Source of the DNA: Spirochaetota bacterium
Lineage (GTDB): Bacteria > Spirochaetota > UBA12135 > COTS27 > CBDBHE01
Assembly: GCA_965205605.1 (NCBI GenBank)
Contig: CBDBHE010000008.1
Span: 40,695-104,694, forward strand
Direction: 5' to 3'
DNA: 64,000 bases
Below the pieces are notes generated by a model. It worked only from the letters and a program-made list of their open reading frames with translations. It was not told where the DNA came from and searched no databases. The stretch's first letter is position 1; every line of letters begins with the position of its first letter. Shown here one piece after another: positions 7,087-54,541 of the stretch. The position numbers and the translations under genes are program-made.

Positions 7087-8106
<1,020 letters not shown>

Positions 8107-8109
8107 TAT

Positions 8110-9726
8110 TTGTCTTCATTTTTAAAAAATTTTTTTAAAGTTTCTTTTTTCACCATCCTTTCTAGAGTCACAGGTTTCATAAGAACCATTTTTTTTGCTT
8201 ATTATTTCGGGGCAAGTGCTCTTTTTGATGCGTTTGTTATTGCTTTCAAACTACCCAATTTATTTAGAAGACTTTTTTCAGAGGGGGCGATTAATTCTGC
8301 TATTATCCCTATTTTAAGTGGATTAGACAAAAACAAAGGAAAAAAATCTAAAAAAATAATTATTTTTCGTCACATTTTCACTTTTTATTTAATCGCTCTT
8401 AGTTTATTGATTATTTTAGTGATTTTATTGGCCCCTTATATCACCCAATTATTTTACTTATTAAAAACTCATTCATCTTCTCCACTTAAAGAAACAACAT
8501 TATTTTTACAAATTATGTTTCCTTATCTTTTATTTGTGTCTCTAGCTGCTCTTTGTCAAAGTGTTTTAAATACTCATCATATTTTTTCTATTTCAGCTGC
8601 AATGCCCGTTGTGTTCAATTTAATGATTATTGCTGTTTGTCTTTTTTTTCCTTTCCTAAATCTAACACTTTTTGAAAAAATGATTCTTATTTCTATTTCA
8701 ACTCTTTTTGGAGGCCTCTTTCAGTTTATACTCCAAGTCCCTTCTGTTTTACGGCTTGGGTATTCTTTTAAAACAGACCTTTTTTTTTTAAAAAACCCTC
8801 ATTTTAAAAAATTCATTTTACTGATGGCACCTATATTATTTTCTTCTGGAATTTATCAAATCAACGTGATTTTAATCGACCCTATTGCAATTTCTTTAGG
8901 AGAAGGCGCTGTTTCTATCCTTCACTATTCTAATCGTCTTTTAGAGCTCCCTCTTGGAATCATCGGCGTTTCTCTTGGCACAGTCGGACTCCCTCTTCTT
9001 TCAAAATATGGAACAAAAAAAAATTTTAAAAAAGTAAGTGAAATACTTCTTAACATCCTCTTATTTCTTATCACCATTATTATGCCAATTTTTACTCTGA
9101 CACTGCTTTATAGAGAAAAAATCATTTCCCTACTACTTGAAGGGGGTACCTTTGGCTTTAAAGAAATACAACTAACCGCTAATTGTTTGTTTTTTCATAT
9201 GTTAGCTTTTCCCTTCATTGCCATCAATCGTATTTTTATGATTGCTTTTTTTTCATTAAAAAATACAAAATTTCCTTTAAAAATTGCCTTTGTTTCTATT
9301 TTTGTTAATTTAGCAAGTTGTCTACTTTTAACAAAAATACTTGATTTCTTTGTTGAAGGTATTGCAATAGCAAGCTTTTTAACAGGATTGGTTAGTTCTT
9401 TATTGCTTTTAATAGGTATTAAAAAAGAAATAAAATACTTTCGACTTAAAGCGTTATTTAAAAAAATCTATCAAACAACACTTGCTTGTTTTTTAACATT
9501 AAGTTTTATTTTATTAATTAGTAAAATCAATCTTTATCATTATTTTTCAAAAATGCTTACAGAGTTCCCTCTAGTAAAACAATCTTTTATAAAAAAAATT
9601 TCTCTCTTTACAGAATTATCATTCAATTCTATATTATTTATAAGCACGTATATATTGATATTATTTCTTTTGAGGGATCAAGAAATAAAAATGTTTTTCA
9701 AAAAATTTAATAAAAAAAATAGCTAG
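8110..9726 (+). CDS. murJ: Lipid II flippase MurJ/MviN
   Basis: N-terminal SRVTGFIRTIFFAYYFGASALFDAFVIAFKLPNLFRRLFSEGAINSAIIP is the characteristic MurJ N-terminus; polytopic 538 aa. Apparent TTG start 3 nt after the ilvC stop. Confidence 0.85.
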   Translation: MSSFLKNFFKVSFFTILSRVTGFIRTIFFAYYFGASALFDAFVIAFKLPNLFRRLFSEGAINSAIIPILSGLDKNKGKKSKKIIIFRHIFTFYLIALSLLIILVILLAPYITQLFYLLKTHSSSPLKETTLFLQIMFPYLLFVSLAALCQSVLNTHHIFSISAAMPVVFNLMIIAVCLFFPFLNLTLFEKMILISISTLFGGLFQFILQVPSVLRLGYSFKTDLFFLKNPHFKKFILLMAPILFSSGIYQINVILIDPIAISLGEGAVSILHYSNRLLELPLGIIGVSLGTVGLPLLSKYGTKKNFKKVSEILLNILLFLITIIMPIFTLTLLYREKIISLLLEGGTFGFKEIQLTANCLFFHMLAFPFIAINRIFMIAFFSLKNTKFPLKIAFVSIFVNLASCLLLTKILDFFVEGIAIASFLTGLVSSLLLLIGIKKEIKYFRLKALFKKIYQTTLACFLTLSFILLISKINLYHYFSKMLTEFPLVKQSFIKKISLFTELSFNSILFISTYILILFLLRDQEIKMFFKKFNKKNS

Positions 9727-9773
9727 CTTAATAATAAATCACTTTGATTGCATGATATTCCCATTGATTAAAA

Positions 9774-10697
9774 ATGAAAAAAAGTAACCTAAAACATTCT
9801 TTTATTTTTATTTATTTATTAATATTATTTTTATCTTTAAATAGTTGCACAAGTCTAATTAAAAGCCTTGTAGTTGAACAAACAATCCCTTTAATTAATT
9901 CTGTGCAAAAAGCTTTTTTTTTAGAAAATGACATTCAAGCAGCAAAAATATCTCTTCCAGCGACAATTAAATTAGCAGAAGGATTTTATCATTACTACCC
10001 ACATTCTCCTTATTATTCTGGGAAACTTTGTTTTTTATACGCTGCCTATACTTTTGGATTTGTTGACAACTCTCCTTACGACGATTTAGAAGAAGACTAT
10101 GATAAAAAAACAACCAAAGTTGACCATTACTATCAAAAAGCTTTTTTTTACGGTAAAACAAGTTTAGAAAAACAGATTCCAAATTTTTTTTCTTTTCTTC
10201 AAGACAGTAAAAAAAGAAAAATTATTCTTAAAAAAATCAAAAAAAAACATATTGAAACTCTTTTTTGGTTTAATTTTTCATGGGCGATGATTATTTTTAA
10301 TGACTTGTCAAATCCTAAAAAAATCATTCAACTAGAAATTGTAAAAGATATTGCTAGTACCATTGAAAAGGTTTACCCAACCTATTTAAAAGGAATTAAT
10401 AAAAGTATTTTTATTGCTTATTATGGTGGCAGGACCGAGATTTTAGGAGGAGACTACAAAAAATGTGATGAATACTATAGACAAGCAAAAGAAATTGCTA
10501 ATAATAAGTCTATTATTGTAAATTATGTTTATTTAAGGTTTGCCGTCACTCAAAGGATTGATAAAAGTTTATTTGAAAAAATTTGTAAAGAAATTAACAA
10601 TTTCAAATTAAAACAAGAAGACGAAATATTGCTTTTAAATTCAATTATCAAAAAAAAAACTGAGCAATTAGCCCAAAAAAAATATTTGTTTTTTTAG
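9774..10697 (+). CDS. Hypothetical lipoprotein
   Basis: Signal peptide followed by a lipobox-like LSLNSC; 307 aa; no recognised domain. Confidence 0.5.
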   Translation: MKKSNLKHSFIFIYLLILFLSLNSCTSLIKSLVVEQTIPLINSVQKAFFLENDIQAAKISLPATIKLAEGFYHYYPHSPYYSGKLCFLYAAYTFGFVDNSPYDDLEEDYDKKTTKVDHYYQKAFFYGKTSLEKQIPNFFSFLQDSKKRKIILKKIKKKHIETLFWFNFSWAMIIFNDLSNPKKIIQLEIVKDIASTIEKVYPTYLKGINKSIFIAYYGGRTEILGGDYKKCDEYYRQAKEIANNKSIIVNYVYLRFAVTQRIDKSLFEKICKEINNFKLKQEDEILLLNSIIKKKTEQLAQKKYLFF

Positions 10698-12178
10698 TTT
10701 TCAATCGCCACCACATACAAAGATGTCCCTCTTTGAATATGAAAAATAATTTTTTTTTTCTTGTGATATCTTTGCATTACTTTTTCATATTGACTGATGC
10801 CATTGACTTCTTCATGATTAACCAAAACAATCACATCTCCCAAACGCACCCCTTGTTGTAAAAGAGGAGATTTTTTGTTGATGTTTTCAATAACAACCCC
10901 TCTGGAGGTTTTAAGTGAAAAACGTTCTTTTGTTTTTTGATTAATGTTGTTGACAGTGATTCCTAAATATTTTTGACTTAAGTTACCCCTAGAAGAAGAG
11001 CTTGAAAGCAAGGGTTTATTTTGACCAATTTTAACTTTAATGACTATTTTCTTTTTAGGGTTACCTCTTTTTAAAAGCTCGATTTCAACAACAGTACCTG
11101 GTTTTGTATTACCAACAAAATTAATTAAATCAGAAGAATCTTTAACTTGCTTTTGATTATAACTAATAACAACATCTCCTTTTTTAATCCCTGCTTTATC
11201 TGCTGGAGAATTATCCGTTACATCAGGAACATAAACTCCTTTTTTACTAATACTTAAAGCGTCTGCCAATTTTTCATTAATATCTTGAACACTAATCCCT
11301 AACCACCCTCGAACAACACTTCCTGTTTCTTTTAACTGTCTAACAATATTTTTAACCATGTTAACAGGAATTGCAAAGCCAATGCCAATATTAGCACCAT
11401 TCTTAGAATAAATCATAGAATTAATTCCAATAACTTCCCCTTTTAAATTAATTAAAGGCCCCCCAGAGTTTCCTGGATTAATCGCAACATCTGTTTGAAT
11501 AAAATTTTCATATTTAGTATTTCCAATTCCTTTTCTTCCTTTTGCTGAAATGACCCCCATTGTAAAAGTATGAGAAAGACCAAAAGGATTGCCGATTGCA
11601 ACCGTAATATCCCCGACATTAACACTGTCCGAATTACCTAAAGTAACATGAGGTAAATTATTAACATTTTTAATTTTTAAAAGAGCCACATCTGTATCTA
11701 CATCTTGACCAACAATTTTTGCTTCATACTCTTTATCATTGTCCTTAAAGACAACAACTATTTTTATACTTCCATCAACTACATGATTATTAGAAATCAA
11801 ATAGCCATCTGAGCTAATAATAAAACCAGAACCAAACGCTGACCTATCTTCTTCAGGAAGATTATCTCTAAAACCAAAAAAACGCTTTAAAAACTCATCC
11901 CCTTGAAAAAAATCTTGAGAATTACTTCTAACAGATTTAACTACTCGAATACTCACTACCGCTGGTAAATTTCTATCGGCTATTTTATTTAAAACTTTTT
12001 GAAGCGGTAAAGCTGCAAGCTCTTTATCACTAATCGTTTCAGCTTGAAAACCTTTAGCATATAAATCAAGAGCCCCTTTTTTTAAGTCTCTATAAAAGAA
12101 AATACTTCCTAAAAGAATGCCCAATAAAATATTTAATGAAAAAATAAAAATAAATTTAAACCTTTTAAATTGATTCAT
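10694..12178 (-). CDS. htrA: Periplasmic serine endoprotease HtrA/DegP/DegQ family (trypsin-like domain plus PDZ domains)
   Basis: GNSGGPL catalytic-Ser motif, N-terminal membrane anchor, C-terminal PDZ-like repeats; 494 aa. Confidence 0.9.
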   Translation of the reverse strand: MNQFKRFKFIFIFSLNILLGILLGSIFFYRDLKKGALDLYAKGFQAETISDKELAALPLQKVLNKIADRNLPAVVSIRVVKSVRSNSQDFFQGDEFLKRFFGFRDNLPEEDRSAFGSGFIISSDGYLISNNHVVDGSIKIVVVFKDNDKEYEAKIVGQDVDTDVALLKIKNVNNLPHVTLGNSDSVNVGDITVAIGNPFGLSHTFTMGVISAKGRKGIGNTKYENFIQTDVAINPGNSGGPLINLKGEVIGINSMIYSKNGANIGIGFAIPVNMVKNIVRQLKETGSVVRGWLGISVQDINEKLADALSISKKGVYVPDVTDNSPADKAGIKKGDVVISYNQKQVKDSSDLINFVGNTKPGTVVEIELLKRGNPKKKIVIKVKIGQNKPLLSSSSSRGNLSQKYLGITVNNINQKTKERFSLKTSRGVVIENINKKSPLLQQGVRLGDVIVLVNHEEVNGISQYEKVMQRYHKKKKIIFHIQRGTSLYVVAIEN

Positions 12179-12614
12179 AAAAAATACTCCTAAGTTTGAT
12201 TTTTAATCAATACTTTTATTTAAATACATAATAATTAAAATTCTAACATAAAAAACATTATTTTTAATGAAAATAATATTGCCTAATAACAATAATAAGT
12301 GAAATTATTAGATGTTTTTCTTAAATTAATAAACCACAAATGAGATTTTTTCTTGGAAGCTTGCAAATTTTTTAAAAAAATTTTTACCTATTTTTTGCAT
12401 ATAGCTGTCATCTCCTTCGTTTTGTAGAATGTAACAAACCCTCTTTAATTTGGAAAAATGCTCAAAAAATCAAAGAATTTTAAAAAAAAAATCTCACCAC
12501 ACAAATCAATCCACCCAACAATTCCTAAAATAAAATCATTCCCTTGTGCTAATTGTAAAAGCTATCTTGTTTAATTCTAAAATTTCTCTTGGTTGTACCG
12601 AAACACAGCCTTGT

Positions 12615-12658
12615 ATACCACAAAAACAAAACTTTAATACCACAAAAACAAAACTTTA
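12615..12658. repeat. Tandem direct repeat, 22 bp x 2 (taccacaaaaacaaaactttaa / ...tttag)
   Basis: Read directly: units at 12615-12636 and 12637-12658, 21 of 22 identical, inside a 535-bp spacer with no ORF of 60 aa or more. Confidence 0.6.
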
Positions 12659-12714
12659 GAATATTTCCAAAAATGCCAATGCCAATCAATTCTTATCACA
12701 AATACACCCCATCT

Positions 12715-13050
12715 TTAAAGTTCAAAAATTCTCTCCATTAAAGTCCATTTTTCTTTTTCATTTGCCTCTGCTACTGACTCTTGAAGTGTGCCCATTAAGT
12801 CTTCCCATTCTTGACATCGTGGATGGAGCTTTAAATAATTTGGCAAATTTTTTCTAATATCAAAATCTTCTTTACCTTCTAAAACCATAAAAAGTCGCCT
12901 TCCCAAAAGATAAATATTCATCTTTTTAACACCTACTTTTTTTAAAGCTTCAACAACCTCTGGCCATGGATTTGCATGATAATCCTTGTACTTTTTAATA
13001 AGTTCTTTATTATTTTTTAAATCAATGCAAAAAGCGTATTCTTTCATCAA
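12715..13050 (-). CDS. L-rhamnose mutarotase family protein (RhaM/YiiL-like)
   Basis: 111-aa ORF; HANPWPEV...NIYL...RLFMVLE...CQEW pattern aligns with E. coli YiiL (HNPIWPEL...AIYL...LLFA...CQRWW). Confidence 0.55.
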   Translation of the reverse strand: MMKEYAFCIDLKNNKELIKKYKDYHANPWPEVVEALKKVGVKKMNIYLLGRRLFMVLEGKEDFDIRKNLPNYLKLHPRCQEWEDLMGTLQESVAEANEKEKWTLMERIFEL

Positions 13051-13438
13051 AAGCTAACCCCCTTAGTAAGTCTTACTTGCTATAATATTGCTCTTAAAAT
13101 TATTCAAAATAATCAAAAAATTTTCTATTCAAAAATAGCCTTCTTTCATTCAAGATACTTTATTTATTATAAAGCCGTGAAAAAAAGAAATGACATCTAA
13201 ATAAAAAATCTATTTCTTTTTATTATTTTTATCATTCTCCTATAACTAAAAAACAATTTGTTTTTTATTAAAAACAATCTTGATATAAATTCAATTGTTA
13301 TATAATAATAAATAAATTATAACTATTTAAATTCAAATATCTCCTAAACTTAAGATCATTATTTTTTCAATTCTTAAATGTCAACAAAAGAAAAATTAAT
13401 GTTAACTTACTTAAGTTTAATTTAAATAATAATGAATC

Positions 13439-16102
13439 ATGATTAAAAAAAATTTAGTAAAATGGGGGGAAATTTCTAATAAACACTGGAAGTGGATTTT
13501 AAGCTTTGCATTTATAATAACACTTATTGCACTTTTTGGTGCAATCAAAGTTAAACTTAATTTCTCAAATACAATTTTTTTTCCAAAAGATTCTTTACAA
13601 TCAAATCAATTAAAAAGCATTTATAATGAATTTTCAACTGCCTTCTCTATCTTTTTATTAGTAGAAGCTAATAATAAAAAAGAAACTATCGCAACAATTG
13701 ACCTCATTAGCAAAGAATTAAAAAAAAACGAAGATATTAAATTTATTATCGATAAAAAAAATATTGATTTTATTTATCAAAATTTTCTTCTTTTAATTGA
13801 TGACAAATCCTTTGATACCAATTTAAAACTGTTAAAAAATCCTTCCTTTAATAATCTTGTTGAGGTTTTTAATGAAAATATTAAAAAAAAAATTGAAGAT
13901 AAAAGTATTTTTAAAAATGAAGATCAAACAGTCCAAAATTTAAATAATCTCATTAAAATATTAGAAAATTTAATGAATTTTTTAGATCATAAACAATCCA
14001 TTAATACAGAGAATTTAGAAAAAAATCTCAAAAATATTTTTATAGGTCAAAATTATTTTTTAAATATAGATGAAAACAAAGGATTTCTTCTACTAATTCC
14101 TAAATATTCCTCTTCTAACAGAGACTATCTTATAAACGGACTTGAAAAACTAGAGCAACAATTAAGTCAAATAAAACTTGCAAAAGGAGTCACTATAGGA
14201 TTAACCGGTCCTCACATTAGAAACCGAGAAGGCGTTATTAGTGGCAATAAAAATATTAAATATTCATTTTTTATTTCTTTTATTTCAATTTTTTTCTTAC
14301 TAATTTTTTCTCTTAGAATGAAATCTTCTCCAATTATTATTATGGGAACGCTTTTTATAGGATTTACTTGGACGATAGGAACGATTGGTTTTTTATACCA
14401 AACACTTAACGTTTTACATGGCATGGTGCTTGTTTCTCTTTCTGGTATTGGAATTGATTTTTCAGTCCACTTTATGATGTCTTATACCCAAGAACGTTTT
14501 AATCACAAAAGAATCCATGAAGAGTCTTTAAATAAAAGCTTTTCAAAAACAGGAAAAGGCATCATTGGAGGAGCGATTACTTCTATTTTAGTTTTTTTAG
14601 TTTTTCAAATTTCTCGAATGGAATTTTTGAAAGATTTAGGAATTATTGCTGCTATTCACATTATTTCTCAAGTTTTAGCAATGTTTATAGTCCTTCCTTG
14701 CCTCATTTGTTTGAAAAATAAAATGAAACAAAACAGCTCAGCTCAATCAAAATATTCAAAAATTTATTATTTTAAAATAACTAAATTTTGGATACAAATT
14801 TCTCGATACCCCAAAAGGACTTTAGGGGTTATTCTTTTAATTATTTCTCTTCTATCTTTTGGGATTCCTTTTGTAAAACAAGTTGACAACCCACTTGATT
14901 TTTATCACAAAAACCTTGCTTCCATTCAAGTGCAAGATAAATTAATCAAATACTTTAATCTTGCTCCAGAAGGATTGGTTATTCAATCTGATAGCATCAA
15001 AAACACAAGAAAGCTTCATAATGCATTAATGGCTGTTTCAAATGTAAAAATGGTAAATTCTATTATTAATTTCTTACCATCTACTAAAACACAAAAAAAA
15101 CGATTTTCTGAAATAAAAAAAATCAAAAAAAGAAAAGTTAGCTACTTTTTTTTAAAAGATCGAAGCAAAGTCACTAAAAATTTAAAAAACCTAGAAAAAA
15201 CTTTGTTAAAAGCTTCTCTATTTGCACAAACCCATAAAAAGGAAGAAGTTGTGAAATTACTAAAAAAAATAGGGATTAACACTAACAGTCAAACTTCTAA
15301 AATCAGTCAATTAGTCAAAGCTTTAAAAAAGAAAAATACTAAAAATAAAATCATTTTAACAACTTTAAATCAAACAGTTGATAAATTTAAAAATCAAATT
15401 ATTTCTGAAAAATTTATTACGATTGATAATATACCAGAAAATATCAAATATCAATTAGTTTCAACTGATCATAGTAAATTTTTATTAACCATATTTCCTT
15501 CTAAAAATCCTTGGCCAAAAAAATTTAGAAAACAATTTATTGCTTCTGTTCATCAAATTTCCCAAAAAGCTACAGGTTTAATCCTCTTAGCAGAAGAGTA
15601 CTATAAAGTTATTGGTGAAGACAGCTTCATGATTGTTCCCATTGCTTTCTTAATCGTCTTTTTTTATGTTTTAATAATCTTAAGACATTTCTACTTATCT
15701 ATTTTTGCTATGGTTCCTGTTGTTTTATCATCTGTTAGTTTATTAGGCATCATGGGATTTTTTAAAATTCACTTTAACTTTATTAACCTTGTTTGTCTTC
15801 CTCTAATAATAGGCATTGGGGTTGACTATAGCATTCATATTTGTGATCGATATTTAAAAGAAGGGAAAGGTCACCTAAATATTGTTATTAAAAATGTAGG
15901 CGAAGCAATTTTCCTTTCTGCTTTAACAACAGCCATTGGATTTTCTTCTATTATTCCATCGATTATGAAAGCTATTAGTAGCACAGGTATCGTTTTAACG
16001 ATAGCTGTTTTGTTATGTTATTTATACACGATGGCGGTTTTACCAAATCTAATTAAAATAGGGGAAAAAAAACTCAATTGGAAAATAACTCCTAAGTACT
16101 AA
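13439..16102 (+). CDS. MMPL/RND-superfamily membrane exporter
   Basis: 887 aa; two clusters of transmembrane helices each followed by a large soluble loop, the typical MMPL/RND topology. Confidence 0.65.
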   Translation: MIKKNLVKWGEISNKHWKWILSFAFIITLIALFGAIKVKLNFSNTIFFPKDSLQSNQLKSIYNEFSTAFSIFLLVEANNKKETIATIDLISKELKKNEDIKFIIDKKNIDFIYQNFLLLIDDKSFDTNLKLLKNPSFNNLVEVFNENIKKKIEDKSIFKNEDQTVQNLNNLIKILENLMNFLDHKQSINTENLEKNLKNIFIGQNYFLNIDENKGFLLLIPKYSSSNRDYLINGLEKLEQQLSQIKLAKGVTIGLTGPHIRNREGVISGNKNIKYSFFISFISIFFLLIFSLRMKSSPIIIMGTLFIGFTWTIGTIGFLYQTLNVLHGMVLVSLSGIGIDFSVHFMMSYTQERFNHKRIHEESLNKSFSKTGKGIIGGAITSILVFLVFQISRMEFLKDLGIIAAIHIISQVLAMFIVLPCLICLKNKMKQNSSAQSKYSKIYYFKITKFWIQISRYPKRTLGVILLIISLLSFGIPFVKQVDNPLDFYHKNLASIQVQDKLIKYFNLAPEGLVIQSDSIKNTRKLHNALMAVSNVKMVNSIINFLPSTKTQKKRFSEIKKIKKRKVSYFFLKDRSKVTKNLKNLEKTLLKASLFAQTHKKEEVVKLLKKIGINTNSQTSKISQLVKALKKKNTKNKIILTTLNQTVDKFKNQIISEKFITIDNIPENIKYQLVSTDHSKFLLTIFPSKNPWPKKFRKQFIASVHQISQKATGLILLAEEYYKVIGEDSFMIVPIAFLIVFFYVLIILRHFYLSIFAMVPVVLSSVSLLGIMGFFKIHFNFINLVCLPLIIGIGVDYSIHICDRYLKEGKGHLNIVIKNVGEAIFLSALTTAIGFSSIIPSIMKAISSTGIVLTIAVLLCYLYTMAVLPNLIKIGEKKLNWKITPKY

Positions 16103-16115
16103 ATCCAATTAATGA

Positions 16116-16766
16116 ATGGCTTGCACCTATCCTGTTTTAATTGATTTAAAAGATCAAAAAATTTTAATTATAGGAGGAGGAAATACAGCTTTTCAAAAAA
16201 CCACTAAGCTTTTAAAAACTCATTGCTATCTTACGATTATTAGTCCTTCTATTTCAATTCAATTTCAATCTATTTTGCCTAAAATTAATTATCTTTCAAA
16301 AAAGGCTACTTTAAAAGATATTAAAAAAGATTACAAACTTATATTTGCTTGTACAAATGATGTTGTATTTAATGAAAAAGTAGCTCAATATGCAAAAAAA
16401 CAAAATCTTTTAATTAATAATAGTAGTCAAAAAAAAAATTCCAACTTCCATAACGCCATTACAATTGAACAAACCCCTCTTTTAATATCAATTTATTCAA
16501 GTGGATTCCCTTTTTTTTCAAAATATCTAAAAAAAATTATTGAAAACCAATTTTTTCCAAAGTATGCTTTGTTAGCTAAATTTCTCTATCCCTATGGAGA
16601 AAGGCTTAAAAACAATTCATACCAAAAAGTTGATTTTTTTTTAAAAAAAATTTCAAAAACTAAAATAAAAAGATTACTACTTAAATATCAAAAGTATAAA
16701 CAAAAATCTATTTTAAAAAAATGTATTAAAATTACTGAAAAAACACTTAAAAAATGCATCCAGTAA
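16116..16766 (+). CDS. Precorrin-2 dehydrogenase / sirohydrochlorin ferrochelatase (siroheme synthase N-terminal domain, CysG-N/SirC-like)
   Basis: Rossmann motif ILIIGGGNTAFQK at the N-terminus; 216 aa; immediately upstream of and overlapping the CobA/HemD gene. Confidence 0.65.
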   Translation: MACTYPVLIDLKDQKILIIGGGNTAFQKTTKLLKTHCYLTIISPSISIQFQSILPKINYLSKKATLKDIKKDYKLIFACTNDVVFNEKVAQYAKKQNLLINNSSQKKNSNFHNAITIEQTPLLISIYSSGFPFFSKYLKKIIENQFFPKYALLAKFLYPYGERLKNNSYQKVDFFLKKISKTKIKRLLLKYQKYKQKSILKKCIKITEKTLKKCIQ

Positions 16767-18283
16767 AATGTTTTTTAGTAGGAGCTGGTCCAGGTGATAT
16801 TGGTCTACTAACCCTTAAAGCTTTTAACCTATTAAAAAAAGCCAATGTTGTTGTTTATGACAACCTTATTCCCAAAGAAGCTCTTTCTTTTTGCCCAAAA
16901 AATTCAAAAAAAATCTATGTTGGAAAAACAAGAAGTAAAAAAGATCCAAAACAAAAAACGATCAACAATATCCTCATTAAAGAATGTTTACTTGCAAAAA
17001 ACAAAATTCTTTTAAAATCAAAAAAAACATTTTACATTATTCGTCTTAAAGGAGGCGATCCTTTTATTTTTGGAAGAGGTTATGAGGAAATAAATGCCTT
17101 AAAAGAAAATAAAATTCCTTTTGAAATTATTCCTGGTATTTCTTCTTTTTATGCTGTTTCCACTTACGCAGGTATTCCTCTCACCCTAAGGGAATCTTCT
17201 AGAAGTTTTTCTGTTATGACAGGTCACTTTAAAAAAGAGGATAACAACAAAGATATGCTTATTTCTTCGACAGACACGGTTATTTATTTAATGGGTATTA
17301 AAAATATCAAAAAAATTATTGAAAAAAACATCAAAGCCAATAAGCCTTTAGATACTCCCATTGCTATTATTGAAAATGGCTGTACTTTAAAACAAAAAAC
17401 AACTGTTTCAACCCTGGGAAACATAAAAGAACAATTAAAAAATAAACAATTAAAATTAGGACATCCAGGTCTTATTATTATGGGTGATGTTGTTAAATGT
17501 CGTAATACAATGAACTGGTATGAAAAAAAACCTCTTTTTGGAAAAAATATTGTGATAACAAGAAACCTTGAAGAACTCCCTGCTTTGAATGCTTCTTTAA
17601 CTAATTTTGGAGCAAATGTAACTTGTTTACCCGTTATTTCAAATGACTCTTATCAAAAAAAAGAAAAATTTCTTATTGAAAAATTAAAAGAAAATCATCA
17701 AAAAATGATTATTTTTACTTCTTCTAGAGCGGTTAATCGTTTTTTTGAAACATTAAAAAAAAATAAAAAAGATATTAGAATCTTATATAAGAGTCAAATT
17801 ATTTCCATTGGCAAAGAAACAACCAAAACAATCAAAAAGTATCATCTTAATATTGATCTTAAATCTAAAAATTCTTCTCAAGAAGGTATTGTAACTCTTT
17901 TAAAAAAACAAAGCAATCTAAACAAGGTTGAAATCATCCTTCCAAGAGCTTTGGAATCTAGAAAAGTTTTAGAGGCATTTTTAAAAGAAAAAAAAATACC
18001 TTATAGCCTTATTCCTCTTTACAAAACAACCGCTAACCGAGTTGATTTAAAGCAAATACACCACTCTGATGCTATTTTATTTGCTTCTCCAAGTGCCGTT
18101 AATTCATTTTTTAGTCAATATAAAAAAACTAAAATAAAACAACCAAATCCTATTTTTGTTTGTATTGGCCCTATTACAAGAAAAGAAGTGGAAAAATGGG
18201 GTTACCCATCAAAATCCCTTAGAGACAAACCAAGCTTTGAAAATTTAGCAAAATTGGTCGTAAATCTATTATCTAATTCTTGA
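16754..18283 (+). CDS. cobA: Uroporphyrinogen-III C-methyltransferase fused to uroporphyrinogen-III synthase (CobA/HemD)
   Basis: N-terminal SUMT motif LVGAGPGDIGLLTLKA and GGDPFIFGRG; C-terminal ~250 aa HemD-like; 509 aa. Confidence 0.85.
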   Translation: MHPVKCFLVGAGPGDIGLLTLKAFNLLKKANVVVYDNLIPKEALSFCPKNSKKIYVGKTRSKKDPKQKTINNILIKECLLAKNKILLKSKKTFYIIRLKGGDPFIFGRGYEEINALKENKIPFEIIPGISSFYAVSTYAGIPLTLRESSRSFSVMTGHFKKEDNNKDMLISSTDTVIYLMGIKNIKKIIEKNIKANKPLDTPIAIIENGCTLKQKTTVSTLGNIKEQLKNKQLKLGHPGLIIMGDVVKCRNTMNWYEKKPLFGKNIVITRNLEELPALNASLTNFGANVTCLPVISNDSYQKKEKFLIEKLKENHQKMIIFTSSRAVNRFFETLKKNKKDIRILYKSQIISIGKETTKTIKKYHLNIDLKSKNSSQEGIVTLLKKQSNLNKVEIILPRALESRKVLEAFLKEKKIPYSLIPLYKTTANRVDLKQIHHSDAILFASPSAVNSFFSQYKKTKIKQPNPIFVCIGPITRKEVEKWGYPSKSLRDKPSFENLAKLVVNLLSNS

Positions 18284-18295
18284 TTCTATAAATAT

Positions 18296-19195
18296 TTATA
18301 TTCCTATATAAGCAGCTCCAAAAACTCCTGCACTATCTCCTAATTGATTGGAAACAATAGAAGTTTTACAGCTATCTGAAAAAACATATTTTTTAACATG
18401 CTCAACTCCTAAGGTGTACAATTCTTTTACTTGAGAAACCCCCCCTCCAATAACAATCAAATCTGGATCTAAAAGATTGATCACATTAGCTAAAGCTCTA
18501 GCAAAATAATCTAAGTAGATTTCCATAAATTCCAAACAATGGGTGTCTTTGTTACGAAAATTTTCAATAATTTGGGGAAAACTAAGAATCTTTTTATACT
18601 GATTTTCAAAAAGTTTACTCGCCCCATTTCCACTAAGGTAAACTTCCACACACCCTCTCTTCCCACAATAACATTTAGGGCCTTTTACTTCAAGCATCAT
18701 GTGTCCCCATTCCCCAGCAATTCCCTCTTTTCCTTTATAAAGTTTTCCTTCATATACAATCCCCCCCCCACATCCAGTGCCTAAAACAATCCCAAAAACC
18801 ATTTTTTGATTAATCCCTGAGCCATTTATCGCTTCTGCTAAAGTAAAACAATTAGCATCATTTTCAATAACAATTTTTTTTTCTAATAGTCCTTCTAAAT
18901 CTTGTTTAAAAGGCTTGCCATTAAGACAAAGTGTGTTTGAATTTCGCAAATTTCCTGTTTCTAAAGAAATAGAACCTGGAGTACAAATTCCAAAAGAAGT
19001 CTCTTGAGAAGAAAAATCTTGAATTAATTCCTTATATAAAGAAAAAATCTGATTTAATAAATGATGATAACCTTTTGTTTGTTCTGTAGCGATTCTTTTT
19101 CTTTTAATTTCTTTGCCTTCTTTATTAAGGACAATGCCTTCAATTTTGGTCCCACCTAAATCAATCCCTACTTGATATTTTTTTTTATGATGCAT
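18296..19195 (-). CDS. ROK-family sugar kinase (glucokinase-like)
   Basis: IDLGGTKIEG N-terminus, LGTGCGGGIVYEG and zinc motif CYCGKRGCVE typical of ROK kinases. Confidence 0.8.
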   Translation of the reverse strand: MHHKKKYQVGIDLGGTKIEGIVLNKEGKEIKRKRIATEQTKGYHHLLNQIFSLYKELIQDFSSQETSFGICTPGSISLETGNLRNSNTLCLNGKPFKQDLEGLLEKKIVIENDANCFTLAEAINGSGINQKMVFGIVLGTGCGGGIVYEGKLYKGKEGIAGEWGHMMLEVKGPKCYCGKRGCVEVYLSGNGASKLFENQYKKILSFPQIIENFRNKDTHCLEFMEIYLDYFARALANVINLLDPDLIVIGGGVSQVKELYTLGVEHVKKYVFSDSCKTSIVSNQLGDSAGVFGAAYIGI

Positions 19196-19215
19196 ACAAT
19201 GTAATTAATAAAAAG

Positions 19216-19800
19216 TTATTTCAACTTTTCTAGTATTTCCTTCCAATCAAAAATCTCCTTATTAAAAACAATTTTTATCAAAAATAAACTTCTTTTATCT
19301 TTTTTCTCATAGATTAATTGGTACTGATTTTTCCCTAAAAGAAAGTCAAAAAAATCACTTAAATCTTTTTTAACAAGATCAAAAGTTTCTTTTTCATTAG
19401 GAGCAATTGCTCTATCATTTATTTGAAAAATAAGCTGTGATACATTAAATTCACATTTTTTAGAAAGAGTTTCAAAAAATTTGAAATCCAAAAATCTTTT
19501 TATAAAATTTTTAAAAGTTGTTTTTAATTTTAAAACATTATCAGATTCACCTAAAAAACCATTTCTAAAATAAGAAAAAAAAAGAGCTTTTTCTTCAATT
19601 TCTTCGATCGCATAGCTTTCGTGATGCCCTGCTAAAAATAATTTAACTCCCCCGTACACATGAGCATAGCTGACAACATCAACAAAAATTTCTGGACTAT
19701 TTGGGATCCAATGATTAAAACATTGATAAAAAAGATCTAAAGGGAGATCTTTAGATTTTTTAAAACCAATACTCCATTTGATTTTTTCTAAGAAATTCAT
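19216..19800 (-). CDS. Hypothetical protein
   Basis: 194-aa ORF between the sulfite reductase and ROK kinase genes, same strand; no recognised motif. Confidence 0.45.
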   Translation of the reverse strand: MNFLEKIKWSIGFKKSKDLPLDLFYQCFNHWIPNSPEIFVDVVSYAHVYGGVKLFLAGHHESYAIEEIEEKALFFSYFRNGFLGESDNVLKLKTTFKNFIKRFLDFKFFETLSKKCEFNVSQLIFQINDRAIAPNEKETFDLVKKDLSDFFDFLLGKNQYQLIYEKKDKRSLFLIKIVFNKEIFDWKEILEKLK

Positions 19801-19832
19801 TGATTAATATTTTATTTTTTAAAAAAAGATAT

Positions 19833-22139
19833 TTACTTAGAAACGACTTCTTTTTCACTTAGTCTAACATTACAAGCATGACAGGCTTCGATAAAAAGCT
19901 GTGCTTCGTGAATACGTTGAAAAGCTTTTTCTTGATCGAAAGCTTCATTTTTATTTTTATGAAAAGAAAAGTAATAATTAGCGAATTTATTCCCTGCAAA
20001 AGGATCTTGAAAAAAGTTAGTATCAATAAATCGAGTTTTAAATTCACTGACAACTTGATCATCGTGATCAGAAACATCAATGTCATAACTCTTAACTAAA
20101 GCTTGTGCTGCCAGCTTCATAGACTCATAAGCCATCATTCCTGCTTCTTGATAAGATTGCTGGTCAAGTTTAATTTGAGCATCAAAAATTTGTCTTTCTG
20201 CTTTTTGAAGTTCAAAGTCAGTCAGAGAAACAATTTCTCCAGCACATTCTCCAACTCCCTTATCAGAAACAGAATACTCTCTTACATCAGACCAATCAAC
20301 ATAATAAGATTTATTTTCCTCATATTCAGGGACTTGTGTTAAATAATCTAAATGTTTTTTAAGGTGTAATTTCCCAACTCTTTGAACATAATCTCGAAAG
20401 CTTTCATGACGATCTTTTTTTTCATTTAAATACAAATCAGTGATTTGTTTGACAACTTGTGGAATTGCTTTTGAAGGAAAAGCCATCACACTAAGTCCAT
20501 AATCACTAATATTTGATTTTTGTTCACCTCCTAAAAGCATTTGAAAGTGAGGAACCACATAACCATTTTTTTTTCTACTAATGCCAAAAAAACCAATATC
20601 TGCTATGTGGTGTTGAGCACAAGAATTAAAACAACCACTAATTTTTATTGAAAGACTTTTAATCGAATCATCCATCATAGCCATCTCCCTAGAAAGAGAG
20701 CTTGAAAGCTCAGAAGCAACTCCTCTAGAAGAAGCCGTACCCAGTTTACATGTGTCCGTTCCAGGACAAGCGGTAATGTCAACGATAGTTTTAAAAAAAG
20801 GTTTCGCTAAAGATTTTGCTTTAAGATATTTATAAATTTCAGGCAAGTCTTTTATAGATACCCATTGAATCAAAAGATTTTGATCCACAGTGGTGTACGC
20901 TAAAATAGTTGGATACTTTCGTAAAAGATCTGCAAGAAAACGCATCTGTAAAGCACTTAAATCACCTAAAGGAGAGTAAATAATAAGGTTCACAAATCCT
21001 TTTTGCTTTTGTTCTTTTACATTAAACTGTAACCACTGATTATAATTGCTATCACTTGTATTTTTAGACAATAAATGATGTTCTTGTTTGACTTCTTTAA
21101 TGGCTAAATCTTTTTGAGTCTTTGTTTTAAGATCTTCTAGAAAAGTAGCCCATTTAGAATCAGGAGATAATTTTTTCTTTTCTTTTAAAACTTCTTCTTT
21201 AAATTTATCAATTCCGAAATCATTAATTAAAAACTTAATACGAGCTCTTGACCTAATTTTTTTTTCTCCATAACGAGCATAAACTCGACAAATGGCCTGT
21301 ATGGTAGAAAAAATATCTTGTTGAACAACAAAATCATCAAAGAGTTTTGCCTTAAAAGGTATCGTTCCCAAACCACCCCCTACCCACACTTCAAAACCTT
21401 GTTTAATCTCTTTGTCTGTTTTTTTTTCTTTAGCAATCAAACCCAAGTCATGAATATTTGCAAGAGCACAAGGATGATCTTTACAACCAGAAAGAGCTAT
21501 TTTAAATTTTCTACCAAAATTTTGAACATCAGGATGACCCAATAAAAAATTAAATATTGCTTCTGCATAAGGGATCGTATTAAAAGCTTCTGTTTTACAA
21601 GTGCCCGAATAAGGACAAGCCGTAACATTACGAACCGAATTACCACAAGCTTCCTTTGTTGTAATCCCTACCTCACCAAGACGCCGATACATAGAAGGTG
21701 TATTTTCAATATGAATAAAATGCAACTGAATATCTTGCCTTGTGGTGATATGAGAAATCCCATCAGAATATTCCTCTGAAAGATCAGCGAAAAGATCCAT
21801 TTGTTTAGCATTAATAGCTCCATAAGGCAACTTAATTCTTTGCATTCCAGGAGCATCCCAAAGAGTCGTTGGGCCTTTTGTCAAATCTCTAGGATAGTTA
21901 ATTTGCCTGTCTTGCTTACCATCATTTCTTTTGCCATTATCATAACGCTGACCATAAGCTCCCATACGAAGACGTATTTCTGCAAAAAGCTTCTCATCTG
22001 TTTTCCCTTCTTTTTTAAACTCTAAATCTTTTTCATAATCATCAATAAATTTTTTATATTTAGAGTCTATCTTATCAGCTGTTTTTTCTTTCCAAAACTC
22101 GCCCGAATCATTTTTATTTGCTACTGTTTCTTTCATCAA
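19833..22139 (-). CDS. sir: Ferredoxin-dependent sulfite/nitrite reductase (siroheme/4Fe-4S, NirA/Sir family) with C-terminal extension
   Basis: Cys clusters CGNSVRNVTACP and TACPGTDTC...SGCFNSC (C-x5-C...C-x3-C siroheme/Fe-S ligands); 768 aa, about 160 aa longer than typical. Confidence 0.8.
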   Translation of the reverse strand: MMKETVANKNDSGEFWKEKTADKIDSKYKKFIDDYEKDLEFKKEGKTDEKLFAEIRLRMGAYGQRYDNGKRNDGKQDRQINYPRDLTKGPTTLWDAPGMQRIKLPYGAINAKQMDLFADLSEEYSDGISHITTRQDIQLHFIHIENTPSMYRRLGEVGITTKEACGNSVRNVTACPYSGTCKTEAFNTIPYAEAIFNFLLGHPDVQNFGRKFKIALSGCKDHPCALANIHDLGLIAKEKKTDKEIKQGFEVWVGGGLGTIPFKAKLFDDFVVQQDIFSTIQAICRVYARYGEKKIRSRARIKFLINDFGIDKFKEEVLKEKKKLSPDSKWATFLEDLKTKTQKDLAIKEVKQEHHLLSKNTSDSNYNQWLQFNVKEQKQKGFVNLIIYSPLGDLSALQMRFLADLLRKYPTILAYTTVDQNLLIQWVSIKDLPEIYKYLKAKSLAKPFFKTIVDITACPGTDTCKLGTASSRGVASELSSSLSREMAMMDDSIKSLSIKISGCFNSCAQHHIADIGFFGISRKKNGYVVPHFQMLLGGEQKSNISDYGLSVMAFPSKAIPQVVKQITDLYLNEKKDRHESFRDYVQRVGKLHLKKHLDYLTQVPEYEENKSYYVDWSDVREYSVSDKGVGECAGEIVSLTDFELQKAERQIFDAQIKLDQQSYQEAGMMAYESMKLAAQALVKSYDIDVSDHDDQVVSEFKTRFIDTNFFQDPFAGNKFANYYFSFHKNKNEAFDQEKAFQRIHEAQLFIEACHACNVRLSEKEVVSK

Positions 22140-25765: not shown

Positions 25766-26860
25766 TTAGCTAGCCTTCTTGTTTAAAATCAAATCACAAG
25801 TTTTGCTTACTTGCTTCACAGTAATACTTTGCATACAAATAGGATTTTTACATCCTTTAAATTTTCCTTGATAACACGGACTACAAGTTATTTTAGATTC
25901 TAAAATTATACTGTTATGTGATAAAGGAGCTTTTTCTTTAGGATCAGTTGGTCCAAAAATAGAAATAATAGGGACATCCATACTTGCTGCAAGGTGCATC
26001 CCTCCTGTATCTCCTGTGAGAAATACATGAGCTTCTTTTAAAAAAAAGCTAAATTCTTTTAAAGAAAGTTTCGCACAAAGATTAATCATTTTTGCTTTAG
26101 AAGATTGTTTCAAAACAGAATTTTTAATTTCCTCACAAAGACTTTCATCAGCTTTTCCTCCAACAAGAAAAAAAATTTCCTTTTCATCAGAAGGCTTCTT
26201 TAATCGATCACAAATAAAATCGATATACATTTCTTTTGGCCATCTTCTAACCGTGACTGATTCTCCTGGATTACTGCCTCCACCAGGATTAATAAAAATG
26301 TTCTTTTCTTTTTTTTTCAAAAAATAAGCTTTTTTAATTTGTTTCAAGGTTTTATTAAAAGAAGTCTGACCTGTAAAAAAATCTAATTTTTTACTCTCTT
26401 TTACAAAATTAGTAGAATCAACTAAACGTAAAAACTCTTTAATATGATGTTCTCTGTCTTGAAAAAAATCCTTTAAAAATAAAGGGATTTTTAAAAAAGA
26501 AACCCATTTTATAAAAGAGATTTTTTTTCCCTTTATAAGAGAAAAAAACAAATAAAGTAATTTATTTCGATGAAAAAAATAAATACACTCATATTTATTT
26601 TGATAAAGTTTCCAAAAAAGCTTTGCTAAAAGGCTCAGCTTTCTTTCATAAAATAAAGCATCATCAACAACAATTATTTGATCAATTAAAGGATTGTTTT
26701 CTAAAACTTGATGCGACCAATTACCAACCAAATAATGAATCGTGCTTTTAGGGTGTGTTTTTTTTATCAAACGAAGCGCTGGTGTTGTCATTAAAACATC
26801 ACCAATAGCTCCTAGCTTAATAATAAGAATTTTCGCCTTTTTAGTAGGCATTTTTATCAA
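25766..26860 (-). CDS. ADP-heptose:LPS heptosyltransferase family (GT9)
   Basis: ILIIKLGAIGDVLMTTPALRLIKKTHP N-terminal GT9 motif and C-terminal GDTGGMHLAASMDVP; 364 aa. Confidence 0.75.
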   Translation of the reverse strand: MIKMPTKKAKILIIKLGAIGDVLMTTPALRLIKKTHPKSTIHYLVGNWSHQVLENNPLIDQIIVVDDALFYERKLSLLAKLFWKLYQNKYECIYFFHRNKLLYLFFSLIKGKKISFIKWVSFLKIPLFLKDFFQDREHHIKEFLRLVDSTNFVKESKKLDFFTGQTSFNKTLKQIKKAYFLKKKEKNIFINPGGGSNPGESVTVRRWPKEMYIDFICDRLKKPSDEKEIFFLVGGKADESLCEEIKNSVLKQSSKAKMINLCAKLSLKEFSFFLKEAHVFLTGDTGGMHLAASMDVPIISIFGPTDPKEKAPLSHNSIILESKITCSPCYQGKFKGCKNPICMQSITVKQVSKTCDLILNKKAS

Positions 26861-28752: not shown

Positions 28753-28773
28753 ATAAAAAATAATTTTATTTAA

Positions 28774-29022
28774 TTAAAGACGGCAATTCTTAATATTTAA
28801 CTCTAAAATTCCTGTTGCTCCTATTGTTTCTAACAAATCAATCATCTCAAATACTTTATCTTTAAGAACTAAAGCTCGAATAGAAAGTAAGTCTTCATCA
28901 TCTAAAGGCAAAACAGTTGGTGAGTTATAACCAGGTGTAATTTTCTCAACTATTTTTAATTTTTCTTTAGGAATATTATACTCCAACATGCTATAAGAAC
29001 GAGCAATTAAAATCCCTTCCAA
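28774..29022 (-). CDS. hisG: ATP phosphoribosyltransferase HisG, C-terminal regulatory domain; out of frame with the upstream catalytic portion
   Basis: 82-aa ORF YNIPKEKLKIVEKITPGYNSPTVLPLDDEDLL...ETIGATGILELNIKN aligns with the E. coli HisG C-terminus ([23 protein letters not shown]...LGASSILVLPIEK). Frame changes at an A8 run. Confidence 0.7.
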   Translation of the reverse strand: MEGILIARSYSMLEYNIPKEKLKIVEKITPGYNSPTVLPLDDEDLLSIRALVLKDKVFEMIDLLETIGATGILELNIKNCRL

Positions 29023-36096: not shown

Positions 36097-36364
36097 CTTG
36101 ATTAAATAAATCTTGGGTTATCAAATAATAGCTTTTTTTCTAAAGAAAACATCGAATTCAAACTTTCTGTTTCCACTTCAAAGTTCATGCTCTTATTGCT
36201 CAAGGTTATATTAATAATGTTAGAGAAGCAACAACAAAGTTTTTTTATCTTTTCAAAGAAAAAAAAGAGAAATATAAACTGAAATAATGCTGTTAATTTC
36301 TTTAAATAAAAAATATTAAATAGAATCAACAATTAAATTAGTGACTTGATTGAATCATTAATTA

Positions 36365-36382
36365 TACAAGACATGTCTTGTA
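36365..36382. promoter_or_regulatory. Perfect 18-bp palindrome TACAAGACATGTCTTGTA, candidate operator about 74 bp upstream of pyk
   Basis: Read directly; self-complementary over all 18 positions; overlaps a TTGTAC -35-like hexamer. Confidence 0.35.
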
Positions 36383-43695: not shown

Positions 43696-44050
43696 AACTA
43701 GTGAAGCCACTTATTATTATAAAATAGCTTTTATTAAAGCTTATGAATCAAAAGAAATTGAAGAAGCTTTAAAAATTTGGAAGCAATTATCAAAAATTAA
43801 CCCTAAAGATCCTGCTTTTTATCTTACTCAAGGTAAAAAAATAGCAAATAAACTAAACTCTGAAGAAAAAAGAAACTTATACAAATACATTATTAATTAT
43901 TATGAAAAAAATTTAGAAGGAAATGAAAAAGAATTTCTTTCTATTTTAAAATCAATTGTAAACAATAAAATTTTTCAAGAAAATCTTAATCATCTTTTAG
44001 CTAAGACTTACTCTAGACTCTATAAAAGCCACTCTCATTTAGAAGATGTT

Positions 44051-49135: not shown

Positions 49136-49492
49136 TTTAAGATCCTACCTATTTATCAAAAAATTAAAAATAAGATGAAAATTAATAGCATGAATTAACT
49201 ATTAATTCTAATTAATTTTATACTCAAAAAAAACTAAGAAATATTTACTATTTTATTTTTTAAAAATTTTTGATTTTTAATGACTTCAAAAAAATAACAA
49301 TCTAAATATTCGACTTCTTTGTACTCTCTTCCATCATCGCCTGTTCTCCCCTCTTACTTTTTTTAAAAAAGGATGGTAATACACTTTACTTAAAATTATT
49401 TTCATTTCTTCAGTAGACTCTTTAAAATCTAGGTTATAAAAAATTAAATTAAATTTTTTCGCCTTTAAAAAAAAAGTATTTGATTGCTTTCT

Positions 49493-53968: not shown

Positions 53969-54541
53969 TTAGAAATTTTTTTTAGCAAGACCTAAAAGAG
54001 AAATTTCATCTATAGAAAGATTAAGTTTTTTTGCTATTTCTCTATTAGAGATATTTTTTTTTTTAAAATAAAAAAGTTTTTCTTCCAAAGTCATTTTGTG
54101 AAAAGACTCTTGTTCTTTTTCTTCTAAATAATTTTTTAAAGAAATTGATGAAGTTTTTAAATTTGAAACACCTCGATAAGCCTTTTGAACAGAAGAATCT
54201 TGAAGTTCTTTTTTATCTTTTTTTTGATCATTAAAAATAGATATTGTAGAATTATTTTGTTTATTTAATTTTTTATTAACAAATTCTCCCTTTAAAAAGT
54301 ATTCTTTTTTTTTTATATTTAATTTTTCTTCAATAATTTTTACTATTTTTTTATTTTCTTCAATTTTATCTTCTATTAAAGAAATATTTCTATCAGCATA
54401 CTTGTTAAAAGAAATAATCAAAAGGTCAAGTTCATTTTTAATATCTTGCGTAAGAATCTCTTTTTTAATTTTGTTTTTAAAAAAAAACAAAAAACCAAAA
54501 TTAACAATAAGTTGAAAAATAATTATTAAAAAATAAATCAT
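53969..54541 (-). CDS. Hypothetical membrane-anchored protein with C-terminal helix-turn-helix
   Basis: N-terminal TM helix (IYFLIIIFQLIVNFGFLFFF); C-terminal NREIAKKLNLSIDEISLLGLAKK resembles a sigma-70 region-4 / LuxR-type HTH. Confidence 0.45.
   Translation of the reverse strand: MIYFLIIIFQLIVNFGFLFFFKNKIKKEILTQDIKNELDLLIISFNKYADRNISLIEDKIEENKKIVKIIEEKLNIKKKEYFLKGEFVNKKLNKQNNSTISIFNDQKKDKKELQDSSVQKAYRGVSNLKTSSISLKNYLEEKEQESFHKMTLEEKLFYFKKKNISNREIAKKLNLSIDEISLLGLAKKNF

Follow-up and report, generated by a model that had tools for sequence, protein, structure and literature searches.

A probable relic of a non-phosphorylating L-fucose gene cluster, with one surviving mutarotase gene, between htrA and an MMPL exporter gene in an AT-rich Spirochaetota bacterium

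On the non-phosphorylating route of L-fucose breakdown, L-fucose mutarotase (FucM), a dehydrogenase, the L-fucono-1,5-lactonase FucB of cog3618, a dehydratase, a KDF dehydrogenase and a hydrolase work one after another (PMC11199699). The lactonase is a member of the amidohydrolase superfamily (Amidohydro_2, PF04909; structures 4DLF/4DNM/4DO7; Hobbs et al. 2013, as cited by PMC11199699 and by PMC6946681), and the genes of the Campylobacter jejuni fuc locus include a comparable hydrolase/mutarotase pair, Cj0487/Cj0488 (PMC6946681). The present analysis concerns a 64,000-nucleotide stretch of a Spirochaetota bacterium (GCA_965205605.1, contig CBDBHE010000008.1, positions 40,695 to 104,694; hereafter the window, to which all coordinates refer) and, within it, a rhaM-like mutarotase gene that stands with long spacers on both sides between the protease gene htrA and an MMPL-type exporter gene. 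We regard the segment 12281-13180, with high confidence, as the relic of a non-phosphorylating L-fucose (6-deoxy-sugar) gene cluster. The cluster would once have held the mutarotase gene and a downstream lactonase gene. The lactonase gene would have decayed through frameshifts, a stop codon, an internal deletion and loss of its 3' part while the mutarotase gene survived, and a young 22-bp slippage duplication would have arisen inside the dead lactonase sequence.

Homologues of the rhaM-like gene are found in clusters together with genes for a lactonase, SDR dehydrogenases, an FAA-family hydrolase and a sugar ABC transporter. Two homologous loci were examined, L001 (GCA_021730635.1) and L002 (GCA_041745315.1). 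The rhaM homologues P0046 and P0005 (~61% identical, tblastn) are each directly followed by a gene for a 278-residue Amidohydro_2 protein and then by an SDR gene. In L001, SDR and FAA-hydrolase genes also lie 5' of the rhaM homologue and a sugar ABC transporter lies 3' of it. The order proposed for the relic, with the lactonase 3' of the RhaM-family gene, is that of L001 and L002.

The spacer on the 3' side of the rhaM-like gene (the left spacer) contains the remains of such an amidohydrolase gene. A tblastn search of window positions 12000-13600 with the L001 and L002 amidohydrolases gave a minus-strand match from 12693 to 12502 (E 3e-8 and 3e-7), in which RIDWHWHFWKYS aligned with KIDAHQHFWHYT and LLQLAQGNDFILGIVGWIDL with LLKLAEAHDFIKGVVGWIDL. 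Weaker collinear pieces lie at 12433 to 12398 (YILQNEGDDSYM against HIIQDEPDDLFM) and at 12347 to 12288, and their spacing fits the protein. In addition, a subfamily hidden Markov model (HMM) was built from 120 family members, many of them named L-fuconolactonase by their source. It gave collinear matches in all three minus-strand frames (HMM positions 2-24, 58-86, 45-129 and 119-152), with scores of 30.5, 16.5 and 2.9 bits that sum to 49.9, against a maximum of 11.5 among 300 dinucleotide-preserving shuffles of the spacer. The model matched no plus-strand frame, nothing in the right spacer and no other copy in the window.

Frameshift-aware alignment, in which the family consensus was compared with the DNA by dynamic programming, placed residues 1-152 of 278 on 12699 to 12288, with 54 of the 133 aligned codons identical (41%). 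The aligned sequence begins 15 nt past the stop codon of the mutarotase gene. It shares with the cog3618 L-fucono-1,5-lactonases both this place directly 3' of a RhaM-family gene and a series of conserved blocks in the same order and spacing: HxH, GCVxVQ, LLxLAxxxDFIxGxVGWxDL and a VxQDExDD-like block. The N-terminal 55% of the protein, with the HxH metal motif and the LLxLAxxxDFIxGxVGWxDL block, can still be recognized. The N-terminal metal-ligand motif reads R-I-D-W-H-W-H-F-W and aligns with KIDAHQHFW in the homologues and with RIDSHQHFW in the structure 4DLF. When the reconstructed peptide was compared with all PDB sequences, the top matches were 4DLF/4DNM/4DO7, described as “Amidohydrolase 2,” with RIDxHxHFW aligned (E 0.013).

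Unlike a cog3618 lactonase gene, the aligned sequence carries one in-frame stop and four frameshifts (near 12639, 12562, 12468 and 12367), with an internal gap of ~18-25 residues. The C-terminal 126 residues (153-278) have no counterpart; the 3' half is lost. No full-length open reading frame (ORF) of ~278 aa that includes the C-terminal half of the barrel is present. Because of the frameshifts, the stop, the deletion and the missing residues, the sequence is filed as a pseudogene rather than a gene, and it cannot encode an active enzyme. The left spacer is thus identified, from its sequence, as a decayed L-fucono-1,5-lactonase-type gene of the same operon as the rhaM-like gene. Relics of the proteins whose genes adjoin rhaM on its other side in the homologous clusters (FAA hydrolase, SDR, dioxygenase, periplasmic binding protein, VIT1 and LytTR) were sought by tblastn in both spacers, and no match was better than E ~0.5. 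A UspB match (E 0.025) in the Pfam scan of the minus-strand frames was spurious.

Base composition points the same way. The earlier note on this DNA, made from the letters alone, described the left spacer as C-rich on the plus strand. This holds for 12400-12714 (C 71, G 24, GC 0.30) and does not hold for 12179-12399, where a GC of 0.17 is typical of intergenic DNA in this 28%-GC genome. The composition of 12400-12714, with C far in excess of G, is the same as that of the adjoining minus-strand genes (GC 0.31 for htrA and 0.30 for rhaM), which suggests decayed minus-strand coding sequence. The plus-strand C-richness is the residue of that coding sequence. Coding-like composition without an ORF, multiple frameshifts, a tandem duplication, deletions and presence/absence polymorphism between close relatives are all shared with the pseudogenes and operon relics that occur, as a general result of gene decay once selection is lost, in intergenic DNA that varies among bacterial strains. 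The locus differs from typical operon relics in that one former cluster member is still intact; otherwise nothing sets it apart.

The surviving member was called rhaM-like in the earlier note, and the call is borne out by a PF05336 match that covers profile positions 2-105 of 105 (E 1.5e-27; 96.3 bits, gathering cut-off 23.4). The 110-residue product shares 57-64% identity with its nearest homologues. Across 36 homologues, 39 columns show conservation of at least 90%, and the protein keeps 35 of these. The four changes (N/D, D/N, D/N and F/L) are conservative, and their number lies within the homologues' own range. L-fucose mutarotase (7BYU/7BYW) provides the only matches of the protein among PDB sequences (E 7e-5). 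A Shine-Dalgarno-like AAGGGGG lies 5' of the gene. With full-length PF05336, the 110-residue length class and the sole PDB match in common, the product is most like FucM, although its identity to the FucM of known structure is low and, unlike its clustered homologues, the window gene stands alone. Its substrate (L-fucose, L-rhamnose or another 6-deoxy sugar) and its mutarotase activity are putative, with the PDB match to L-fucose mutarotase and the fucose-type clusters of the homologues as the sole indirect pointers. The gene had been described as isolated. This is correct insofar as no intact pathway gene adjoins it, but it is better seen as the survivor of a decayed cluster than as a gene isolated by design.

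The left spacer also contains an exact 22-bp tandem repeat, which the earlier note had pointed out together with a GCCAAT dimer and a 38-codon ORF that starts at ATG 12458 on the plus strand; all three are present as described. The unit ATACCACAAAAACAAAACTTTA occurs as two exact head-to-tail copies (Tandem Repeats Finder [TRF] score 88, 100% match) and is the top-scoring and only perfect tandem repeat of the window. With up to 3 mismatches allowed, the window has no further copy, and two matches arose in 0 of 100 shuffles. Two other TRF repeats of the window, both imperfect, lie at 26541-26604 (31 bp, 2 copies) and 54310-54364 (30 bp, 1.9 copies).

On the minus strand, the first copy of the 22-bp repeat encodes KVLFLW(Y), aligned with consensus residues 14-20 (SPEEYSW). 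The frame break at ~12639 and the gap of 18-25 consensus residues are located at the repeat, and 22 bp is not a whole number of codons. Removal of one copy did not restore the frame and lowered the alignment score from 159 to 147. The duplication is therefore neither the sole nor the primary inactivating lesion but one among several. Given this out-of-frame period and the identity of its two copies, the repeat is a recent slippage-type duplication in already nonfunctional sequence, and no function is needed to explain it. Antisense to the GCCAAT dimer are the codons TGG CAT TGG CAT, which encode the W-H-W-H of the metal-ligand motif. The 38-codon ORF had no Pfam match. Among 1.84 billion representative proteins its only match was a repetitive 1459-aa protein, aligned over seven short stretches (E 1.2e-4), and this is a low-complexity match.

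The earlier note had proposed a comparison of the htrA-MMPL spacing in related genomes. A close relative, L077 (ENA ERZ25069296, ctg19969_3x_l), was found through its HtrA (92% identical) in a large protein search, and it does not have the 900-bp block that holds the pseudogene and the rhaM-like gene. In a blastn comparison of window positions 8000-20000 with L077, 9181-12280 aligned at 92.2% and 13181-20000 at 90.1%, and nothing else aligned. The outer parts of the two spacers, 12179-12280 (92%) and 13181-13438 (91%), are conserved to the same degree as the flanking genes. At the site of the block L077 has ~250 unrelated bases (9519-9275), partly GC-richer, in which no Rfam match and no amidohydrolase signal were found; this sequence could be another relic. 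The MMPL and htrA genes of L077 (6329-8997 and 9622-11107) are called as several broken ORFs. Because the contig has 3x coverage according to its name, these breaks are probably frameshifts from sequencing errors and not real pseudogenes.

Searches for further relatives gave little. In exact look-ups on contigs, the window's own RhaM and HtrA proteins were not on record. A scan of GTDB species representatives with HtrA returned only distant relatives (33-47% identity) without usable synteny, HtrA relatives at 48-52% identity shared no neighborhood with the window, and a 38-nt stretch conserved upstream of htrA had no match in a scan of Joint Genome Institute (JGI) metagenomes. A 28-nt inverted repeat (79% complementary) has its arms at 12254-12281 and 13254-13281, both in sequence common to L077. 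Its left arm stops at the block's left junction, and its right arm lies ~75 bp beyond the right junction. It is probably an AT-rich chance match.

How the block came to differ between the two genomes can be read in two ways. The block is probably old in this AT-rich lineage, so that loss or replacement in the lineage of L077 is favored over recent gain here. Long residence is favored because the composition of the block is host-like (GC 0.283, with a GC content at third codon positions [GC3] of 0.225 for rhaM and 0.19 for htrA and MMPL), whereas its nearest homologues have a GC3 of 0.49-0.58 and lie in genomes of ~46% GC. It is favored further because the decay of the pseudogene, with 41% identity to the consensus and several lesions, exceeds what could have accumulated after the split within a flank divergence of 8-9%. 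The other reading, that an already truncated and decayed fragment from another AT-rich genome was inserted by illegitimate recombination after the split from L077, is possible but doubtful. It would explain why the pseudogene's last detectable residue (12288) and the left junction (12280) lie within ~8 bp of each other, as if the fragment had been cut at integration, and why L077 has unrelated bases at its site instead of a clean deletion. Composition and extent of decay both speak against it, and the hallmarks of a mobile element were not found. Among the origins that the earlier note had offered for the spacer, an insertion scar comes nearest to the block as observed, although it is too vague. 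Because the comparison rests on one low-coverage relative, the preference for loss over gain is tentative.

The two other origins offered there, a small RNA and a regulatory repeat array, received no support. That the spacer encodes a small regulatory RNA, or a cis-acting one such as a long htrA leader or a riboswitch, with the repeat as part of its structure, is highly improbable. The segment is upstream of htrA and codirectional with it, and read-through from rhaM could place it in the htrA leader; weak Rfam matches below threshold also occur (JA04 with 22 bits where the gathering score is 81, E 2.5). The covariance-model scan that had been suggested nevertheless gave no match at gathering or relaxed thresholds. 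No Rfam family reached its threshold in the window, and at E ≤ 10 the region yielded only matches with E > 2. Furthermore, 12400-12714 folds no better than its shuffles (z +0.53 and +0.75 for the two strands), the segment is absent from L077 although the htrA-proximal 102 bp are kept at 92%, and the sequence is fully explained as decayed coding DNA. That the repeat and the GCCAAT dimer form a protein-binding array (operator- or iteron-like) controlling htrA or the rhaM-like gene is barely credible. Two perfect adjacent copies are far beyond chance, but two is all there are. Neither a third copy nor a degenerate one occurs in the 64 kb, the repeat recurs at no other locus of the window, and it is not conserved in L077, whereas three or more copies, recurrence or conservation would mark an iteron, operator or CRISPR-like array. 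It lies 3' of the rhaM-like gene and ~440 bp away from the start of htrA, inside the pseudogene exactly at the frame break, and the dimer corresponds to codons of the HxH motif. The 38-codon ORF, despite its ATG start and 38 open codons, is almost certainly not a real small protein. It has no Pfam match, its sole library match is of low complexity, it is absent from L077 and it has no clear ribosome-binding site. Its Lys-rich composition mirrors the antisense of the Phe/Leu-rich pseudogene frame, and it is most likely a chance ORF.

Several points weigh against the view of the block as the relic of a gene cluster, or limit it. The generic Pfam Amidohydro_2 model did not match any of the three minus-strand frames of the spacer. 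Since that model is silent on single frames, the identification rests on the subfamily profile, tblastn and synteny. The distal pieces (residues 106-152) are individually weak and gain credibility mainly from their collinearity and spacing. L077 is the single close relative in the collections searched and is a 3x-coverage contig. Neither terminal inverted repeats nor a target-site duplication were found at the two junctions (12280/12281 and 13180/13181). No transposase-like ORF is present in the region, and the site has none of the marks of an insertion sequence or miniature inverted-repeat transposable element scar. A transcript through the relic may also have a secondary role.

The rhaM-like gene has remained intact. 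At the rate of its 412-bp neighbor, which has ~6 disabling lesions, ~5 would be expected in the 333-bp gene, and the chance of finding none is ~1%. Because the neighbor is so damaged and the mutarotase gene has no such lesion, the gene is probably still under purifying selection, by a rough lesion-rate argument rather than by the ratio of nonsynonymous to synonymous substitution rates (dN/dS). It is conceivable, though unlikely, that selection keeps it as a stand-alone mutarotase, for example for anomer conversion that supplies another 6-deoxy-sugar route, a transporter or a sensor, or that transcription reading through from it over the dead lactonase gene has become part of a regulatory leader of htrA.

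The features of the locus are collected in Table 1. The earlier note had remarked on the long ORF-poor flanks of the rhaM-like gene, and these are as described. No other gap between ORFs of at least 100 aa in the window, whose median gap is 21.5 bp, is as long as the left spacer (12179-12714, 536 bp) or the right spacer (13051-13438, 388 bp). Neither contains an ORF of at least 60 aa, the longest being 50 aa. The left spacer consists of the dead gene and the htrA promoter, and the right spacer consists of 130 bp of the block and the conserved upstream region of the MMPL gene.

Table 1. Features of the htrA-MMPL region, in window coordinates
Feature	Positions	Strand	Basis or remarks
htrA/DegQ-type serine protease gene (left flank)	10694-12178	-	Pfam Trypsin_2 and two PDZ domains; 92.7% nucleotide identity to L077
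htrA-proximal spacer, probable htrA promoter and 5' untranslated region	12179-12280		Common to L077 (9621-9520), 92.2%; GC ~0.17
Block of 900 bp specific to the window, with the pseudogene, the rhaM-like gene and the 130 bp 5' of that gene	12281-13180		Missing in L077
cog3618/Amidohydro_2 L-fucono-1,5-lactonase-type pseudogene	12288-12699	-	tblastn, subfamily HMM, frameshift-aware alignment, PDB search
38-codon ORF, antisense to the pseudogene	12458-12574	+	ATG start
Exact 22-bp tandem duplication within the pseudogene	12615-12658		TRF; at the internal deletion/frameshift site
GCCAAT dimer (12675-12686), inside gccaatgccaat	12673-12686	-	Translation; alignment to homologues
Intact rhaM-family gene, 110 aa from ATG (TTG one codon upstream possible)	12715-13047	-	PF05336
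Block-specific sequence 5' of the rhaM-like gene (ribosome-binding site, possible promoter)	13051-13180		Absent from L077
MMPL-proximal spacer, probable MMPL promoter region	13181-13438		Common to L077, 91.1% identity
MMPL/RND-type exporter gene (right flank)	13439-16102	+	Pfam MMPL, E 4.5e-34; 90.7% nucleotide identity to L077

Promoter-like sites in the spacers are consensus matches only. On the minus strand they lie at 12267 to 12240 and 12285 to 12257 near htrA and at 13127 to 13099 in the block-specific sequence upstream of the rhaM-like gene, and on the plus strand at 13280-13309 and 13402-13430 in front of the MMPL gene. Promoter and terminator scans gave counts equal to the shuffle expectation, and no terminator was found after the rhaM-like gene. 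The block-specific 13051-13180 showed no signal of a protein relic in tblastn with the neighboring proteins or with the subfamily profile, and Rfam gave no match on 13181-13438.

Elsewhere in the window, the next-longest gaps between ORFs are 49136-49492, 43696-44050, 36097-36377 and 28753-29006 (357, 355, 281 and 254 bp), the last with a rather coding-like GC of 0.27. Immediately to the right of the MMPL gene, 16116-22139 holds a siroheme-synthesis and sulfite/nitrite-reductase set (an NAD_binding_7 protein, a TP_methylase-HEM4 fusion and a NirA/Sir-type hemoprotein) that is also conserved in L077, and flagellar export genes, including FlhA, occur at 59-63 kb. Together, these genes point to a bacterium that is motile and free-living and not to a reduced symbiont. 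No tRNA gene, transfer-messenger RNA (tmRNA) gene or Rfam family at gathering score was found in the whole window.

The finding reflects ordinary gene decay rather than a new RNA or regulatory element and raises no new biological question of wide interest. Its value lies mainly in annotation: a spacer with a striking repeat is a dead gene and should be annotated as a pseudogene, not as a candidate for a small RNA or a regulatory element. Operon decay is also cleanly illustrated here on a small scale, with a 110-codon gene that survives beside a neighbor with about six disabling lesions, at a site that is polymorphic between two genomes ~91% identical. If the mutarotase gene were indeed kept for a function of its own, it would represent a stand-alone mutarotase role in an uncultured, flagellated, AT-rich bacterium after decay of the pathway.

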